A stretch of 64,000 bases of DNA, taken from sequence record MN850576.1, one strand, 5' to 3'. Under the pieces are notes generated by a model. It ran no database searches, was not told the origin of the DNA, and saw only the letters and a program-made list of their open reading frames with translations. The translations under genes were made by a program, and so were the position numbers. Of this stretch, positions 4,787 through 28,364 are shown one piece after another. How positions within the stretch are numbered: the stretch's first letter is position 1; every line of letters begins with the position of its first letter. Source of the stretch: Escherichia phage ime.

Positions 4787-5099
4787 CTGTGATCTGGAAC
4801 GGGACTCCCATCATTTTAGAAGCTTGCCAGAAGCAATGCACCACCATTTCACCCACAGGGCTCCAGATAAGTTCAAGCTTTCCGTCATCGTTCAGGATAG
4901 GATCGTACACCGTGTTTCCGTCTCTGTCAACCACTTCGTTTCCGTTTTCATCCTTGCGTGCCTTTTTGTACTTATGACCGTCAAACACATGAAGTTTGGC
5001 CTCCTGCTCTGCCTTAAATGCTTCCAATTCTTCAATTGTGTCGAAGGTGTACACAGTCTTATACTTAGGCGTGTCAGGGACCTGAAGTTGGTACTCATC
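4746..5099 (-). CDS. DNA polymerase family A, C-terminal segment (putative exon 2)
   Basis: Frame is open from an upstream TAG and begins DEYQLQV...; ends ...GRNWGDCH, resembling family A polymerase C-termini as recalled. No ATG or RBS of its own; the ORF track starts it at TTG 5102. Confidence 0.65.
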   Translation of the reverse strand, partial: DEYQLQVPDTPKYKTVYTFDTIEELEAFKAEQEAKLHVFDGHKYKKARKDENGNEVVDRDGNTVYDPILNDDGKLELIWSPVGEMVVHCFWQASKMMGVPFQITGEYLCGRNWGDCH

Positions 5100-5941
5100 C
5101 AATAGTTCAGGTAGGTCGTTAAGCTACCCCGCACCATTACGTGCACAGCCATACGGTTTCCTGTATGGATCGGACTATCTCACTACCTTGTTACCAAGGC
5201 ACCTCTCATTTCGACCGCACTTGCTGGCCTACTCTACTCGCTTCTTCACACCAAACTATGTTGGAGCTATGCTTTCGATAGTCTCTGAACGTTACTACCA
5301 GGTGTAGTTTTTAGAGATATGTTTCCACTGTCTTCTTTGCTTTATGGCTCTGACCGTCTCATAAGGATACCCAAGATCCCTAATCTCACATTGTCGTAGA
5401 CCACTCTGCAACAGTTCACAAATCTCCATTACCTCATCCTCGGTCAGCACAGCGTTGGCATTATACTCACCGACTGGCCTTACTCTGAGCTCATTATCGT
5501 AGGCGTGTTTGATATTTTCACCGGGGGTAGTCCATTCCAGGTTCCAGTATGCATTGTTGTACTTATTTCCATCCTTATGGTTCACCCATGTGAGCTTTTC
5601 AGGATCAGGGTTCGGTACAAAGCATTCAGCAACCAAGTGGTGGACACCTTTTGTGCACTGCCTTCCATCGATGAGCATGGTTACGCAAAGGTAACCTCTA
5701 CCATTATCAAAACAAAACATTGTTGTATGATCACGTTTCGATAAAGGTATTGTTCCATCATCAAACACGATATACCCGTGATAATCAGCTGATCTAGCCA
5801 TTTTAACTACACCCCTTTAGTCTTCGCTGCGGATTAGCATATTGAGTTTTTACCATGTTTAGGTGTAAAAGTCAACTTAGCCTTCCCGTCAATTAAAGAG
5901 GTTTTCGACGTGCATCACTGCACGAAGCCACAATGTTATTT
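5100..5941 (-). mobile_element. putative group I intron carrying an HNH homing endonuclease ORF, inserted in the DNA polymerase gene
   Basis: Interrupts the polymerase after the His codon of motif C; exon 1 ends in U, element ends in G; possible P1 pairing of exon CCAU with GUGG 11-14 nt into the element; about 335 nt of non-coding sequence flank a 507-nt HNH ORF. Confidence 0.55.
5295..5801 (-). CDS. HNH homing endonuclease (I-HmuI-like, HNH_3 type with C-terminal helix-turn-helix)
   Basis: 168 aa; motif ...WVNHKDGNKYNNAYWNLEWTTPGEN... is typical of HNH_3 endonucleases; C-terminal ...LTEDEVMEICELL...WKHI resembles their DNA-binding tail; own RBS upstream. Confidence 0.8.
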   Translation of the reverse strand: MARSADYHGYIVFDDGTIPLSKRDHTTMFCFDNGRGYLCVTMLIDGRQCTKGVHHLVAECFVPNPDPEKLTWVNHKDGNKYNNAYWNLEWTTPGENIKHAYDNELRVRPVGEYNANAVLTEDEVMEICELLQSGLRQCEIRDLGYPYETVRAIKQRRQWKHISKNYTW

Positions 5942-8365
5942 ATGGTAATAAATAATACGACGAACACCTTCATCGTACCACCCACGCTTCACCATTTGGT
6001 GGTGCATGAGTATCCCAACTAAGTCACACAACGATGCACCACCATTTTGTTGGTATGCATTAAGTAAAGAGTGTTTAGATCGGGTCCAGATAGCATGACC
6101 ATCAAAAGAGTAGATAAACTTCTTACCCGTTGCTTCCCAGAATTTCTCCAGATCCTCTTTACGCCCTTTAAGACCAGGGTTGGCATCCCAAAGCGCATCG
6201 ATTACCCTTTGCCCCAACTCTGGGGAGATATCCAGCATGTCTGCAACTTTATCTTTTTGTGCCCCATACATAACCCCGTACGTGATAGGTTTACCGTCGT
6301 TACGAGACACCTCTCTACCTGCTACTTTCGTATATGCCTCAGCATTGTTTTGGTGGGCATCCCCGTTACTTACAACATCGTAATACAGGCCGTTGTCGAA
6401 CTCAAAGGCACCCCAAGCCCCGATAAGCTGCTCTAAGTTGGACCCGTCAATACCGATCTCAAAGTATCCTGGAGGAACACCCCACAGACTGCGCATCTCT
6501 TTACCCATAACCACTTTAGGAGATGGTTTAGGCATGTTTGCACAAATACTGTGTTTCTGTCGGGAAGTGTTTGTTAATCCAGAGCTTTTAGCAGGAAGCT
6601 TATGGTCAATCTTCAAACGTGGGTGATTAAGAAGACCAGTATCAACCTTATCCTCCTTGATTGGATCAAGGACCGATCTGCGGTTTCGCAATGATAACCA
6701 CAAGACGATATCTTTAGCCATCTCTCCGTTCAATTTTTCAAGATTCGGACATAGGTGTCCAAACGTATCTTTCAGTTGCGGAGAAGTAATAAGTGCCCTG
6801 GCTTTTCTGCGTATTTTCCCGAACACTTCCTTTTTAATCCTTTCGGAGTTAGGAAAGCTTCGGAACTTGTGCACTGTTGTCTGAAACTTAGCATCAGTTT
6901 TGTTCCAGAAGTTGATAATTAGGTCACAATACTCTGACTCTAAAAGCTCGTCCATGTATGCATATACTCGTGCATCAACATCTGCATCAGGTAGAGCTTT
7001 CTTCTTGCTGTCCTTAGTTACATCCTTAGTTCTCCACATTGTCGGAAGCCAACCAGCACTGATCAGGTATCGCTTAATGTCGTCCTGGTTGCTGATTTTC
7101 ATAGGTATCTTGCAGTCAGGCATTCGCTTCTGCTGCAGATCACTTATTGCCTGATCCATCAGCTCTTTAGGTAAAGGTTGTGGTGTGGAGGTGCCCTTAA
7201 TATAACCTCTCAAGAAATCAGCCATCTTGTCGGGGTCTTTGCAGCCCATCTCTTCGCACCATTTTATCCCCATCTTGCTGACATCTCCTGTGGAGGTAAA
7301 TGCTCGCTTAGGCGGGGCTTTGAATTCTAAAGCGCTCATGTCTACAGGATAGCCAAGCTTATCTTTTAACCATTTCCAACCATTATTGGAGATTGTCCCA
7401 TCTTGGTTAAACGGCTTTTCAGGGAACTTGGGCCGCTGAGACATTGACAACTCTTTTAAAGGAAGTTGAGGTTCAACACGATCAGCGATCTCTTTCATCC
7501 ACGCATCGCAACGGTCACGTAAAGCAATAGCTCCATCTATGTCGAAGTATACACCCTGACGGGCCTGCAGCTCCATCAGGAAGTGCTGCAGCATGCCTCG
7601 ACGTAATGCGTTCTTCCAGGTGATCTTCTTGAACCCTTTCGGCTTCTCTTTGGCTGGATCGTACATAAAGTTCTGCATGTCAGATTTGCCGTAGAATACA
7701 CCTTTTGATTCCGCTACCAGCTCTTTCCAGAGCAGCTCCTGGATGATAACGTCCTCGAATACACGATCCACATACTTCCACAACGGAAGATCGCGCCAGT
7801 CATCAATTTGAACTTTCTGGTTACCAAGGGCGTAGCCCCATGCCATAAGGCCGTGAGGACCAACAGGCTGCATTTTCTTAGTAACCGGGTTGAATACAGA
7901 GTCCGGACAACCTTTTGGTAAAGGGCGATCAGGCCACAAGATTCTGCTCATCGCCAACGTATCAAACAGGTTAACCTGGTGGTCGTTGATAGTCCCCATG
8001 CATTTAGGATCACGGAACATATCAAAATGAATACCGGATAATCTTTCCATCAGCATAAAGTCATAACTGTAGCAGTTATGGCAGTTCAAAGCTGTTGGTG
8101 ACCAGTCGGAATTGCCTGTAAGCCAACCTTCCAACTCCGAAAAATCTGCTATGCGAACTTCAAAATCTTTATGAAGAGTTTTCTTTGCCAGAATAAAGTT
8201 CTTAGCCTTCTCTATATCCTCTTCGGAGTAGTGTGTGCGGTCATTTAGAGGAAGGAACAGCATAAAACGGTTCTTATTCAGCTCTTTAAACAGGCCGCAG
8301 TGATAATAAAGATCTGGATCTTCCAGCAAACCGGATGACTCAAAGTCGAACGACCACATGCTCAT
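5942..8365 (-). CDS. DNA polymerase family A with 3'-5' exonuclease domain (putative exon 1; ORF track extends to 5936)
   Basis: N-terminal FDFESSGL matches the Exo I motif; GIDGSNLE...FDNG...NGDAH and K...YGVMYGA align with polymerase motifs A and B as I recall them from T7 gp5; ORF stops two codons after the motif C His. Confidence 0.8.
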
Positions 8366-23509: not shown

Positions 23510-24553
23510 TTGATGTTGACATCTGTTGAGACAATTGATACGATTTCTTCACTTACAGAGCACGAGAGACGACTCATGAATCTTGAAAAATATTATACAC
23601 CAGAAGAGTTAGAGCGCTTGCTCAAAAAATATAGACGCAAACAGAATAACGCACGGAAACGAGATATAGAGTTCGACCTGTCATGGGAAGAATACCTCCT
23701 ATTTGGTAAAAAACTTTTAGGAGATGGAGTATGCGACTATACCCTTATACCTTTTGACATGCACACAGATGAAAACGGGCTGGGGAATCCTTTCTACCCA
23801 TCTCTGGAGCGGATAGATGATGAAGGTCCTTATGCGGTTGATAACTGTTGTGTGGTGGGATTGAGATGCAACTCTCTAAAGGACTGTCTGGTAGATAAAA
23901 AGACTGCAGTCTTGATTAAAGACGAAACTGATCGAAAAATTGTCCAGCAGATGATGCTCCACCTGAGCGAAGAGCGTATGGAGAAATTGAAAGGTGATTA
24001 TACTTTTGAAGATTTCATCTTGCAATATGGAACGGAAGAGGATAAACTAGCACTCTTTGACGAAGAAGAGGAGGAAGATATGCTACCGATGTCTAAAGTT
24101 ACTTATCGTGCACCCAAGAAGCACATTTCCGACATTGTAAACGAGCCTATCACAGAAGAGATTGAAGAAATGACGCAACAGGTGCATGAAGAGGAAAAAG
24201 AGACTCAGGAGGTCGAAGAGGAGCTTACAGAAGAGGTTCCTGCACTACCTGATGATGTTGAGATTGCCAAAGCTTACACTTTCTATTGTCAAACGTTCTA
24301 CGATGTAGGTATGAAAGTTGATCTGTCGTTCAGCCAATTTAAGAGTTCGTATATTCGCAAATGCTGTGCTTTAACTGGTGAACGTCTTGGAGCTGGACTT
24401 AAACCCCTGTTGGTGACCGACTGGAATAAAGGTTTCACTAAAGGAAACTTTATGGTAGTATCTCCAATTATGGAGAAAGCTATGACAGATCTTATGAAGA
24501 CCACCCGCATGACAATGACCGAGTTGGCAGGTATTTTCAAACACGTTAAATAA
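23510..24553 (+). CDS. hypothetical protein with two degenerate HNH (His-Me finger)-like domains
   Basis: 347-aa ORF; two halves share the pattern [FV]DLS...C..TG...[RW]...G[YF]...N..VV...K; the catalytic His appears replaced in both. Start may be ATG 23576 if the promoter at 23516-23544 is used. Confidence 0.5.
   Translation: MMLTSVETIDTISSLTEHERRLMNLEKYYTPEELERLLKKYRRKQNNARKRDIEFDLSWEEYLLFGKKLLGDGVCDYTLIPFDMHTDENGLGNPFYPSLERIDDEGPYAVDNCCVVGLRCNSLKDCLVDKKTAVLIKDETDRKIVQQMMLHLSEERMEKLKGDYTFEDFILQYGTEEDKLALFDEEEEEDMLPMSKVTYRAPKKHISDIVNEPITEEIEEMTQQVHEEEKETQEVEEELTEEVPALPDDVEIAKAYTFYCQTFYDVGMKVDLSFSQFKSSYIRKCCALTGERLGAGLKPLLVTDWNKGFTKGNFMVVSPIMEKAMTDLMKTTRMTMTELAGIFKHVK
23516..23544 (+). promoter_or_regulatory. 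sigma70-like promoter, rightward (-35 TTGACA, 17-nt spacer, -10 TACGAT)
   Basis: TTGACA at 23516-23521, 17-nt spacer, TACGAT at 23539-23544; divergent from the leftward promoter. Confidence 0.5.
24084..24112. repeat. 29-bp perfect inverted repeat copy B (partner at 22222..22250)
   Basis: taccgatgtctaaagttacttatcgtgca; encodes LPMSKVTYRA in the interdomain linker of ORF 23510..24553 and follows a GAGGAGGA and ATG. Confidence 0.85.
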
Positions 24554-24565
24554 TGACAGGGGCCA

Positions 24566-26047
24566 ATGGCCCCTTCTGGAGTTTTAATGGATAGTAGAAG
24601 TTCAGAAATCATTGCCTCGCAGAAAGATGATGCCCTGAGAATGTTGCAGGCTGCACGTATGTATCTCCTTGAAAAGCTGCCGTTTTATGGCACACTACTG
24701 TCAGGGTTGCAGTTCGTAGAAAACCACACATGGTGCTCCACCATGGCAACCGACCATAAACGCATCTATTACAGTCCTGAGTTCATTATGGGATTGGCTG
24801 ATGAACGCAAGGCTATTCTTAAGGCTTCTCTAACTGACGAGCAGTTTGAGATGGCTGAAGTTTTCTATTCCCCAAAATCTGTGAAAGAGGTGGCCTTCCT
24901 TCTGTCACATGAGGTGGGGCATATTATCTGTGATCACCTAGTCCGTGGTAAAAGCTTTGAGCCGGAACTGTTCAATATTGCTTGTGATCACGTTATCAAC
25001 ACAGGCCTTGTGGTTGACTTTAGCAAACCTCCTTGTGTTTTCTTCCCGAAGGGGAAAAGCACTACGTTCATGAAAGGTAAGCCTTTTGGCTTCTTAGCCA
25101 GCTGCTACTGCGACATGAAGTTTCATGGATGGATTGCTGAGAACGTTTATGCAGTTCTTGATAAGCAAAGAGATCAGAATAACGGTAAAAGTAAGAACGG
25201 TAAAGGTGAGAACTCTCAAAGTGATAAGCGACAAACCGATGATCACATGAGTGGGAACGGTGGCACCAGTGATAATCTTGGAAAGGCTATGAGGTATGAT
25301 CAGCCACAACCTGTAATCAGCCAATCTGATAAAGATCAGGCCATGCAGGACTCTGGTGATATGCTGGAGGCAGCAATGCAAGCGTCCGGAGGCCGTTGCC
25401 CTGAGGCGGTGCGTGAGTTTGTCAAGAACAGAGGTAAGCCTGTAATCAACTATATAGACATCATTAAGCAACGTATGTTGTCTAAAAGAAAGGCCGAACT
25501 GACCTACAGAAAACCTGGTCGCCGATCTGGGTCTTTGACCAGCACAATGCGAAAAGTTGGGGCTATAAACAAGAACCAGCACGTTATTGTTCCTGGTCGT
25601 AATCCGGAAAACACTATAGATATTGTGGTGGCTTTAGACGTTTCTGGCTCGATCTCTCAAAGAACTTTAAAGAAAATGTTCAATGAAATCACCGGATTGT
25701 GCAATCTGTATAAAGAGTTTAAGGTTACAATGTTCTGTTGGTCAACTGAGGTTGGAGAGGTTAAAGTATACACTCGCGGCAACATAGACGAGATGGTCAA
25801 CTATGAGGTCCACTCAACATGGGGCACAACAGCTGCTTGCGTGTTCGAGTATCTGGATGCCAACATACCTAATGCAAAAGATGTCATCGTCCTGACCGAC
25901 CTATACTTTGAGCATAACTTTGAACAAAAGGTTGTTGACAACAAGTGGAAAAAGTACGATACTCTATGGGTCCTCACTGAGGGGTATAATAAAAATTATA
26001 TCCCGAGCTTTGGGAAAACTGTGGAATTAATCGAGTACGCTAAGTAA
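24566..26047 (+). CDS. putative metallopeptidase plus VWA domain protein
   Basis: 493 aa; HExxH motif (LSHEVGHIICDH) in the N-terminal half; MIDAS-like VVALDVSGSIS in the C-terminal half. Alternative start ATG 24587 has a GGAG RBS. Confidence 0.65.
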   Translation: MAPSGVLMDSRSSEIIASQKDDALRMLQAARMYLLEKLPFYGTLLSGLQFVENHTWCSTMATDHKRIYYSPEFIMGLADERKAILKASLTDEQFEMAEVFYSPKSVKEVAFLLSHEVGHIICDHLVRGKSFEPELFNIACDHVINTGLVVDFSKPPCVFFPKGKSTTFMKGKPFGFLASCYCDMKFHGWIAENVYAVLDKQRDQNNGKSKNGKGENSQSDKRQTDDHMSGNGGTSDNLGKAMRYDQPQPVISQSDKDQAMQDSGDMLEAAMQASGGRCPEAVREFVKNRGKPVINYIDIIKQRMLSKRKAELTYRKPGRRSGSLTSTMRKVGAINKNQHVIVPGRNPENTIDIVVALDVSGSISQRTLKKMFNEITGLCNLYKEFKVTMFCWSTEVGEVKVYTRGNIDEMVNYEVHSTWGTTAACVFEYLDANIPNAKDVIVLTDLYFEHNFEQKVVDNKWKKYDTLWVLTEGYNKNYIPSFGKTVELIEYAK

Positions 26048-26062
26048 GAGAGGAGGTTATTT

Positions 26063-26326
26063 ATGGCAACAGAGTTAAAATTTGCATCAAACCGTAAAAC
26101 TAAGAAGTATCTGTCCTCAGTAGCTCCAGGCACTGTGGTGATGTTTGTTGATGAACTTGGGGATGTGAATACAGCACTTGTTGTAAAATCACATCCTGCA
26201 AACATATATGTTGGGGTATTTGACCTGTTCAGAAAGGTGTTTGTAGAACTGCCTCACAGTTTGGTTGTTACAGAAATGGATGCCTGCATAGAAATTCTTG
26301 GCGAAGTTATGGTGGAGGAACAATAA
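26063..26326 (+). CDS. small paralog family protein, copy 1
   Basis: 87 aa; GGAGG RBS; shares the core pattern (GTVV / CG.VV, conserved Val/Asp positions) with the next three ORFs. Confidence 0.55.
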   Translation: MATELKFASNRKTKKYLSSVAPGTVVMFVDELGDVNTALVVKSHPANIYVGVFDLFRKVFVELPHSLVVTEMDACIEILGEVMVEEQ

Positions 26327-26589
26327 TGGCTACCAGCATTGTATTCAATTCTAAGGTGAAGAACAAAAAGCGTGCAGACAGTTTTCCGTGTGGGACCGTG
26401 GTAAGTTGCGACGGAGACGGCATTCAAAACATAGTTATGATTGTCAAAACAGGAGAACATTGTGTGTGGGGGTTCGATTTAGAAAATAATGAGTTGTACG
26501 ATCTGCCGCCAAACATGAAAGTTACAGAGCTTGACACCAAAATTACCATCCTTGGAGAGACAAGCTATTCAAAAGAAGGAGGAGAATAA
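26326..26589 (+). CDS. small paralog family protein, copy 2
   Basis: 87 aa, exactly 264 nt; start overlaps previous stop (ATAATGG). Confidence 0.55.
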   Translation: MATSIVFNSKVKNKKRADSFPCGTVVSCDGDGIQNIVMIVKTGEHCVWGFDLENNELYDLPPNMKVTELDTKITILGETSYSKEGGE

Positions 26590-26852
26590 TGACCACAAAA
26601 ATCACTATCGCAGAACCGAAAGCTAACACTCAGCCTATCGAAAAGTTTAAGTGCGGTGAGGTGGTAACATTCACACCAGATAATGAAGATGCTAAGATTT
26701 TCGCAATGGTCACAGCTGAGTGGATGTGTGACAACACCACACAGGTTCTGCGTTTTGACACCTATCTTACCGATGAAATCAGGAACGACAAGATTGTGAC
26801 TGGTGTGGATACTGAGATTGTTTTCTACAAGAGCTTTTTAGAGGGTTTCTGA
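26589..26852 (+). CDS. small paralog family protein, copy 3
   Basis: 87 aa, exactly 264 nt; start overlaps previous stop. Confidence 0.55.
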   Translation: MTTKITIAEPKANTQPIEKFKCGEVVTFTPDNEDAKIFAMVTAEWMCDNTTQVLRFDTYLTDEIRNDKIVTGVDTEIVFYKSFLEGF

Positions 26853-26853
26853 T

Positions 26854-27087
26854 ATGGCAAAAATTAGAAAATTATCTAGCAATCAGGTTGTGAAAGACTT
26901 CGAATCTGGAGAGATTCTTTATGTTCGTGATGCAGATGACGAAGGTGAAGATCTCGTTATGTTGGTGGGGCACGCTGAGGACGGATGCATCCAAGCTGTT
27001 TTTCTTGAAACAGCTATGGTGCACTGGATAGAGCTGGACCTGAAAGCACGAAAACCTAAAGCAGAAATCCTGATTTACGAAGATTAA
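26854..27087 (+). CDS. small paralog family protein, copy 4 (more diverged)
   Basis: 77 aa; same size class and acidic character, immediately downstream of copy 3. Confidence 0.5.
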   Translation: MAKIRKLSSNQVVKDFESGEILYVRDADDEGEDLVMLVGHAEDGCIQAVFLETAMVHWIELDLKARKPKAEILIYED

Positions 27088-27103: not shown

Positions 27104-27553
27104 GTGTTGAGCAAACGTGAATGCGACAGCATTAGCCTGAATTCTTATAAGAAACAATGGTTTGGGGTGGAAGTTTGCCGACTGCGGCTAGGCTCCTACC
27201 TGAACTTCGTTTATTATGAGAGTGACAGTCGTATCGTTTCTTATGAAGTGTTCTACACTAAGAACACATTCGAACTGCGCCGTAAAGTAGATGGCGGGAG
27301 AACTACCACCCAGAATAATTGGGAAACTATTCTGCCTCCAGATGTTATAGGAAGTCCCCTGAATGTATCTGAAGATGAAAATCTTATGGTTCATGCTATG
27401 ATGGGACTTGACAGCTTAGAGCTGGCAATCTATGATATGTCCATCGAAGCAGTTAAGCTGGACTACATCGAAAACACTTTAGAGGAAGGTATCAAGAAGT
27501 TTCTCAGTGAGAAATTAAAAGACCACTTTCATAAGGAGCTATATCTGTTATGA
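27104..27553 (+). CDS. hypothetical protein
   Basis: 149-aa ORF; GTG start with AAAGGAGA 7 nt upstream. Confidence 0.55.
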   Translation: MLSKRECDSISLNSYKKQWFGVEVCRLRLGSYLNFVYYESDSRIVSYEVFYTKNTFELRRKVDGGRTTTQNNWETILPPDVIGSPLNVSEDENLMVHAMMGLDSLELAIYDMSIEAVKLDYIENTLEEGIKKFLSEKLKDHFHKELYLL

Positions 27554-27795
27554 AGACCCGTAAAGAACGTAACAAAATTTTACCTGGAGCTCTCGAACAC
27601 CTGATGAAGTGCAGATCTATTTGGCACTCTGCCAAGGAAGGGCAGAAGGTGGTTGTGGTTAGTGACAATACCAACCCGTTTGGAGATTATACCACCATGA
27701 TGGCTCCATATGTCCGTGATGGCGTTGTAGAAGTGGTCCCTTACAACGGTTTGCATGAACGGCACTTTGAAAGCACTTTGCTAGTGGAGCTATAG
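27550..27795 (+). CDS. hypothetical protein
   Basis: 81-aa ORF; start overlaps upstream stop. Confidence 0.5.
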   Translation: MKTRKERNKILPGALEHLMKCRSIWHSAKEGQKVVVVSDNTNPFGDYTTMMAPYVRDGVVEVVPYNGLHERHFESTLLVEL

Positions 27796-27797
27796 TC

Positions 27798-28364
27798 ATG
27801 GCGGTCAATGTGGCTTACAACACAGGAAAGCTTGACAGAGACATTGGGTGTCTTGTCCTTTCAGATACAGAAGAGTATTGGGGTTATGGGTTGCTGTCAG
27901 ACCCACACCCGAGCAACCTTGTATCAACAGTGCTATACCGCTACGACCCTGTGCCAACGGTACACGACAGAGACATTCACGACCTTCGGATCAAGTGTCT
28001 GGAAGATCTGCTGAACAATGGTTGCAACGATCTGCGGGTAGCCAAGGAGAAGCTTACAAACATTCACAAAGAGGAAGTGATGAGTACCCTCAGTAAAAGA
28101 TCAGTGCACAAAAAGATGATGCTGAACTTTGCAATGGGTATCTACATGGATGGGTATAAGGGAGGGGATCCGATCCTCAAGCTTCGCTGCCCGACACTGT
28201 GGGAAAGAGTGGTTGACAGTAAGGACGGTACTGCCCTGCTCGAACTCCACACTGCAGGTTGGATTTGGCGGTATGTAGACGGATACCCTCTGTGGGCATG
28301 TGGACCTGGGGAATTTGTTGACAGACCTAGCGCGGTGGTGGACTTACTATTGCAGTTTGAATAA
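27798..28364 (+). CDS. hypothetical protein
   Basis: 188-aa ORF. Confidence 0.5.
   Translation: MAVNVAYNTGKLDRDIGCLVLSDTEEYWGYGLLSDPHPSNLVSTVLYRYDPVPTVHDRDIHDLRIKCLEDLLNNGCNDLRVAKEKLTNIHKEEVMSTLSKRSVHKKMMLNFAMGIYMDGYKGGDPILKLRCPTLWERVVDSKDGTALLELHTAGWIWRYVDGYPLWACGPGEFVDRPSAVVDLLLQFE

Follow-up and report, generated by a model that had tools for sequence, protein, structure and literature searches.

Four consecutive small genes, located at positions 26063-27087 of the 64,000-nucleotide stretch of Escherichia phage ime analysed here (sequence record MN850576.1; the window hereafter), appear from sequence comparison to encode paralogues of a single protein family, the link of the fourth one being the least secure. 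The window belongs to the genome of a Vequintavirus (rV5-like) myovirus of Escherichia coli, and the genes, named P1 to P4 in the following, are already known in the sense that they are annotated as "hypothetical" in more than 100 GenBank phages and catalogued in three PHROGs of unknown function. The new elements are the grouping of all four into one family, the prediction of their fold, the series of copy numbers found among related phages and the contrast in selection between the slots of the array. In this way, four "hypothetical proteins" turn into a defined family, in which one ancestral gene would have grown to up to four, with one slot recombining as a cassette.

Relationships among the four proteins

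P1 (26063-26326), P2 (26326-26589), P3 (26589-26852) and P4 (26854-27087) are plus-strand open reading frames (ORFs) encoding proteins of 87, 87, 87 and 77 amino acids (aa), exactly as described in the earlier, sequence-only note on this DNA that is followed up here. P1 and P2 (isoelectric points, pI, of 5.0 and 4.9) constitute what is called here family A (phrog_10698) and are the first and second genes of a swappable cassette. P3 (pI 4.5; phrog_12861) is a distant paralogue, near-invariant across Vequintavirus, and P4 (pI 4.6, net charge -8; phrog_12046) the most distant one, being highly conserved as well. The first three genes are indeed of 264 nucleotides (nt) each, P4 being of 234 nt, and this equality is not kept elsewhere, given that the corresponding genes of the four-member relative L005 have 267, 258 and 264 nt and gp014 of phage rV5 has 258 nt. 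The overlap of stop and start codons that the note had reported is found at the P1/P2 (ATAATGG) and P2/P3 (ATAATGA) junctions, where the last A of TAA doubles as the A of ATG (TAATG), and P3 and P4 are separated by a 1-nt spacer with no overlap (TGA-T-ATG). P1 starts 15 nt past the stop codon of the DUF2201 gene. As read from the sequence, every gene has its own Shine-Dalgarno, namely GAGGAGG for P1 (26049..26056, plus strand), GGAGGA for P2, AAGGAGGAG for P3 and GAGGG for P4, the last three lying within the 3' end of the preceding ORF. Translational coupling, which had also been put forward, may operate along the array, but each gene has a strong Shine-Dalgarno and similar overlaps exist between unrelated neighbours. 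One of them is the ATGA overlap at 27550, so overlapping or abutting starts are not confined to the array, and the tight packing is a trait of the operon rather than of the array alone.

The relationship is clearest between P1 and P2, which are 38% identical (Smith-Waterman z=17.9, 2000 shuffles) and fall into the same PHROG. The other pairwise Smith-Waterman comparisons are marginal, with z=4.7 for P2-P3, z=3.8 for P3-P4 and z=3.0 for P2-P4, and give no significant score for P1-P3 or P1-P4. Are P3 and P4 then true paralogues of the first two, or unrelated small beta proteins that lie side by side and whose likeness is due to a common fold and to N-terminal translation signals? Profile comparisons argue for the former. 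A family-A profile was built from 10 sequences excluding P3 and P4, its diverged members being drawn from related phages and metagenomes (rV5 gp014, Pr121LW, Aya, L005, P0002, P0024 and P0025). The resulting hidden Markov model (HMM), run on 759 six-frame ORFs, picked out the P3 orthologues (E=3.5e-6 to 5e-5) and the P4 orthologues (4e-5 to 6e-4) with no other match at E <=0.01. A shallower, earlier profile produced the same ranking among 1654 six-frame ORFs including the whole 64-kb window, in which no other ORF belongs to the family. In hhalign, family A aligns with the P3 family (probability 92%, P=6.4e-7, 74 columns) and with the P4 family (70%, P=4e-5, 67 columns), in both cases full-length and collinearly, against a lowest P of 0.019 in 26 negative-control runs with small neighbouring proteins of other genera. 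The equal lengths and the matching order of strands point in the same direction, as does the single-copy protein of the distant metagenomic relative L012, which matches P2, P3 and P1 about equally well (E 1.6e-4 to 7e-4).

In favour of unrelated neighbours, besides the two non-significant pairwise scores, hhalign gives only P=0.03 for P3 against P4, the proteins are split among three separate PHROGs families and the members move as independent cassettes, as discussed below. On balance, we consider non-paralogy of P3 and P4 distinctly unlikely. The PHROGs in question (full-length matches at 7.6e-43 for P1 and 4.8e-41 for P2 with phrog_10698, 8.8e-62 for P3 with phrog_12861 and 5.1e-55 for P4 with phrog_12046) are catalogued families of exactly these proteins, labelled as of "unknown function". 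There they stand as three unrelated families, which are joined here, via profile comparison, into one superfamily. The shared core combined with high divergence that had been noticed from the sequence can accordingly be read as that of diverged paralogues, evident pairwise for P1 and P2, requiring profiles for P3 and P4, and weaker for the latter. No tandem repeat is found at the nucleotide level within the array, which implies that the duplications are old.

Copy number, exchange and selection at the locus

The number of family members between the DUF2201 gene and the P5 gene, which flank the array, differs among relatives: the variation that the earlier note had suggested looking for across related phages was found, with 0, 1, 3 or 4 members. 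There is none in Seunavirus GAP31 and Mydovirus Seu621, where a P5 homologue comes right after DUF2201 (blastp against P5: GAP31_034, 5e-10; Seu621_237, 1e-6), one in L012 (whose DUF2201 protein is 61% identical), three in rV5 and most cultured Vequintavirus, and four in this phage, Aya and L005. No family member follows DUF2201 in Certrevirus CR3 or in phage A5-4 either, and 13 small neighbouring proteins from Seunavirus, Mydovirus, Certrevirus and A5-4 compared to the family profiles by hhalign all remained at P >=0.019. Members also occur singly in other slots of the early regions of relatives, as a lone family-A gene 5' of a P11 homologue in L015 and as a lone P3-like gene between a P11 homologue and an Srd-like gene in L021. 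From these arrangements, the family members appear to be independent modules, which speaks against an obligate four-subunit complex.

The exchange is concentrated in the first slot. An exchangeable cassette can be delimited at 26077..26578, based on the junction sequences, on flanks that are 95-97% identical to rV5 and on the lack of any blastn match (word size 7) to that phage over this interval. DNA homology with rV5 breaks off once the first four codons of P1 (MATE) have passed and sets in again exactly at the TAATG joining P2 and P3, enclosing 500 nt (P1 and P2) in the window and 230 nt (gp014) in rV5, with no detectable nucleotide similarity between them. Among the GenBank phage records matching the array region (n=117), 43 carry P1 and P2 in the first slot and 74 a single gp014-type gene, which is about 40% identical to P2. 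Overall, the alleles of this slot, of one or two copies, are 26-70% identical. Pr121LW is classified, like the four-gene phages, as Vequintavirus murica and yet is of the single-gene type. The variation in the first slot thus looks like the exchange of cassettes between old alleles at gene boundaries, not like rapid divergence in place. Variable accessory regions between conserved genes of phages often carry counter-defence genes (bioRxiv 10.1101/2023.04.06.535777). The family-A slot resembles such regions in its conserved flanks, its exchange at gene boundaries and its changes in copy number, unlike P3 and P4, which are genus-wide and nearly invariant, so that only the family-A slot qualifies as a variable hotspot; rV5-like phages are not mentioned in that paper (bioRxiv 10.1101/2023.04.06.535777).

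The ratios of non-synonymous to synonymous substitutions (dN/dS), obtained by codon comparison with three relatives, separate the slots further, amounting to 0.01-0.02 for P3, 0.03-0.13 for P4 and 0.15-0.24 for P1 and P2 (0.24 for P1 against Aya). The P3 protein is 93-100% identical in 117/117 records, even where third codon positions are only 52-78% identical, and each of the P4 orthologues compared is at least 95% identical, the synonymous sites of both genes being diverged or saturated and most comparisons giving a dN/dS of 0.01-0.04. By these measures, P3 and P4 are among the most conserved proteins of the region, with purifying selection acting on them as strongly as on core genes, and all four ORFs are real protein-coding genes under purifying selection. 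The expectation of a fast-evolving array consequently holds only in part: variability is found in the first slot alone, and a simple reading in those terms was rejected because of the near-invariance of P3 and P4 and the dN/dS values. In L005, identity amounts to 98% for P3 and 95% for P4, with a synonymous divergence (dS) of about 0.6, whereas the genes on either side reach 55-82% and are saturated at synonymous sites. This contrast indicates very strong purifying selection together with a more recent exchange of the P3-P4 segment. Similarly, the lone P3-like gene of L021 is 81% identical (dN/dS 0.09), its neighbours being 37-65% identical. A further breakpoint is apparent in the comparison with rV5, where identity over window positions 26589-26880 is 80-95% across P3 and rises to 100% from 26878 for about 700 nt, dS being 0.51 for P3 and 0-0.04 for P4 and P5, which locates a breakpoint of recombination where P3 meets P4.

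Beyond these phages, the distribution of the family is extremely narrow. The 2.1 kb around the array are 100% identical at the DNA level to HdK5, nimi and CarlMeissner (BASEL Bas48), in the last of which the counterparts are bas48_0054 to bas48_0051, each annotated as "hypothetical protein". Word-indexed homologue searches in a 5.8-billion-protein index returned 3, 6 and 13 clusters, comprising near-identical Vequintavirus proteins only, and IMG/VR contributed 4 loci. An exhaustive profile search over 1.84 billion representatives gave 10 hits, 9 of them Vequintavirus-type small proteins or fragments, including the two diverged family-A clusters P0024 and P0025. The remaining one, P0026, is a 408-aa protein with four ~100-aa repeats ("DLDAGEVITVRFTN...GRIIVEK") and the sole non-phage match. 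It was judged a false positive since its repeated "GEVITVRF" motif, which matches the GxVV strand of the family, inflates the score. On the evidence of these searches, the family is confined to Vequintavirus-type phages.

Predicted fold and candidate functions

The products are predicted to be all-beta proteins built around a small beta-barrel of the SH3-like type. For P2, the AlphaFold2 model, based on an alignment of family A and P3, reaches a mean local confidence (pLDDT) of 76 and a predicted template modelling score (pTM) of 0.62 and is all-beta, with strands at residues 2-16, 25-30, 33-42, 46-51, 56-59 and 65-76. The model of P4, based on the alignment of its own family only (pLDDT 66, pTM 0.54), has a short helix (9-15) and strands at 21-26, 32-42, 45-50, 55-60 and 70-74. 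Once the 4-residue N-terminal offset of the sequence alignment is allowed for, five core strands coincide between both models. A Foldseek search against BFVD retrieved the P1 orthologue and the Pr121LW family-A gene, followed by many uncharacterised phage proteins of 70-90 aa. Those of N4 (gp21), SU7, EP335, 172-1 and Seu621 are alike in size, phage origin and fold (template modelling scores of 0.55-0.75), but share only 10-20% identity and no detectable sequence kinship, so that the resemblance is one of fold only. As this fold is very common, the matches support a common topology and provide no functional lead.

No sequence relationship, be it in Pfam or in PDB, connects the array proteins with the SH3-like barrels (Tudor, KOW, PWWP, the SH3-like domain of ribosomal L2, Sm/Hfq and RimP). 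No KOW, SH3 or Tudor Pfam family matches even at E up to 1, nor does LSM/Hfq in Pfam, and neither an Sm2-type RG(D/N)N motif in the sequences nor a Tudor-style aromatic set conserved in the alignment of all four families is visible. Unlike these barrels, family A and P3 have a predicted extra long N-terminal strand. Moreover, the array proteins lack KOW and Sm motifs and are acidic stand-alone units, whereas the comparators are domains of larger nucleic-acid or histone readers. They are acidic (pI 4.5-5.0, net charge -4 to -8) and soluble, and the N-terminal stretch of family A is basic. Across the four families, invariance is limited to the start methionine, a single isoleucine and the glycine in F-x-x-G-x-V-V; with no invariant polar residue in common, a shared catalytic site is unlikely.

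What do these proteins do? To our knowledge, most early genes of rV5-like phages have no known function. The best overall explanation, to which we give somewhat less than even confidence, is that of a duplicated family of small proteins acting as non-enzymatic early binders of host or phage macromolecules. Tandem duplication in the distant past would have enlarged the array, with divergence and modular recombination coming afterwards, and the products of the array would be stoichiometric binders (inhibitors or adaptors) at work in the early phase of infection. The targets of P3 and P4 would be conserved ones, and that of the variable family-A slot would differ between hosts and could be, for example, some defence or strain-specific factor. 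Each member would probably act alone, since single members occur alone in related phages. From the pattern of conservation, P3 and P4 stand out as probably binding a conserved target, and the first slot as a candidate for what determines differences between phage and host strains. A counter-defence or host-interaction role, as suggested in the earlier note, is plausible, and with a first slot that is swapped between phages and two last genes that are near-invariant, the genes are reasonable but unremarkable candidates for host takeover. The array as a whole is an ordinary phage accessory-gene array, a reasonable experimental target and no surprise. Should the binder role be confirmed, the host-takeover or counter-defence factors of phages would gain a new small-protein scaffold.

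Several points weigh against this explanation. The link between family A and P4 is only moderately strong (the hhalign probability of 70%), and the confidence of the P2 model is moderate (76) and that of the P4 model low (66), the alignment behind the former having included P3. SH3-like barrels are so common that a shared fold, itself a prediction, would add little to the argument for either homology or function. Early expression is deduced from gene order and promoters predicted in the literature only, and a phage-internal role (such as that of a regulator or an assembly factor) would account for how strongly P3 and P4 are conserved as well as host takeover would. Furthermore, the search for a function was empty: Pfam, NCBIfam and PADLOC gave no significant match, the PDB sequence search none, and PHROGs "unknown function" only. 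No paper on these genes was found in the literature on Bas48, rV5, Vequintavirus and anti-defence, which yielded unrelated topics alone (KpAvs2, predicted to recognise terminase; CBASS and proteases; Avs8 and capsid; daunorubicin).

A more specific version of the binder explanation, unlikely in our estimation, would turn the array into a modular toolkit of small beta-barrel inhibitors, in which P3 and P4 each neutralise a conserved essential machine of E. coli or a widespread defence, while the type of cassette (P1 and P2 or gp014) sets which strain-specific immune system is overcome. Biocontrol and therapy directed at E. coli O157 and further pathogenic strains make wide use of phages of the rV5 type, and if this version were true, the cassette type would predict the host range among such therapeutic phages. 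An exotic variant of it has the paralogues form an Sm-like hetero-ring.

That variant leads to the possibility of a single hetero-oligomer made of all four proteins (for example a ring of the Sm/Hfq-like type or a mixed assembly of beta-barrels), in which coupled translation would fix the ratio of the subunits and which might act on RNA together with the Srd-like protein. Nonetheless, family A is alone in L012 and L015 and P3 in L021, rV5 manages with three members, all four proteins are acidic, which is unusual for RNA binders, and the P2 model matches Tudor and L2-type barrels and not Sm, in line with the missing Sm2-like motif. The obligate four-subunit complex was rejected as leading model because the members occur singly in other phages, and a hetero-oligomer of any of these kinds is quite improbable. 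A little more doubtful still is that the array proteins are accessory partners, substrates or adaptors of the upstream phage system of a MoxR ATPase and the DUF2201 VWA-metallopeptidase. VWA metal ion-dependent adhesion sites (MIDAS) bind acidic ligands, and the array proteins are acidic. In L012 as in all Vequintavirus loci examined, the array follows DUF2201 directly on its 3' side and shares its operon, and a MoxR ATPase gene lies nearby on the opposite strand. However, Seunavirus and Mydovirus have DUF2201 followed by the P5 homologue and no array, DUF2201 is present in 456 phage records versus 117 for the small proteins, and the members of L015 and L021 do not adjoin DUF2201. Lastly, the very small size of the ORFs, their lack of known domains and their confinement to one phage genus might suggest artefacts of annotation or what is left, decaying and without function, of a duplication, but this is extremely improbable, given that the ORFs are intact in 117/117 genomes, with dN/dS far below 1, saturated synonymous change in P3, a strong Shine-Dalgarno each and models confidently structured in their cores.

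Genomic surroundings and record annotations

The array lies in an early-type transcription unit opened by the gene for an Srd-like anti-sigma factor (23576..24553, plus strand; phrog_4592, phrog_1400 and annotation). Genes 11-26 of rV5, to which this unit corresponds, have been proposed to form one transcription unit, with bidirectional sigma-70-type promoters between gene 10 and gene 11 as well as a bidirectional terminator past gene 26 (PMC3606486). A promoter and terminator consensus scan gave no excess over the shuffle expectation and was set aside. On its left, the array is flanked by the conserved gene for a 493-aa DUF2201 metallopeptidase and VWA-like protein (24566..26047, plus strand; Pfam PF13203 at 3e-28, PF09967 at 2.3e-11; synteny), and the conserved right flank is P5 (27104..27553, plus strand, 149 aa, GTG start). 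P6 comes next (27550-27795, 81 aa, phrog_4868), its start overlapping the P5 stop (ATGA). It contains a "GQKVVVV" beta-strand motif and is missing from L005, and it was rejected as a family member (HMM E=8.8, no detectable sequence kinship).

Some annotations of these flanking genes deserve attention. In the PHROG and RefSeq labels, the Srd-like gene and the DUF2201/VWA gene appear as "HNH endonuclease" and P5 as "tail protein". These names disagree with the domains assigned by Pfam and with the genomic context, and look like propagated mis-annotation. The DUF2201/VWA gene is a single intact ORF in the window, and in the RefSeq record of rV5 it is split into the overlapping gp012 and gp013 (L002 2257-3718), reflecting either a frameshift or a sequencing error in the reference. 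The Vequintavirus-like metagenomic contig L012 carries a TnpB/Cas12f-like (OrfB_IS605) gene just 5' of its Srd-like gene, and also two tandem paralogues of P7, the homologue of which occupies 27798-28364 in the window (reported positions 119-1258 and 4938-6128).

Two observations concern the records in which the array was found. L007 (GCA_002973135.1, contig JZQG01000001.1) is a 45.8-kb Vequintavirus-like contig within an E. coli genome assembly, and its phage proteins are for that reason named "hypothetical protein [Escherichia coli]" at NCBI. Besides, sixteen "Campylobacter phage" records (MG0656xx; H21, H36, H37 and others), with Campylobacter jejuni given as host, match E. coli Vequintavirus at 97-100% identity over this region, and their host assignment looks doubtful.

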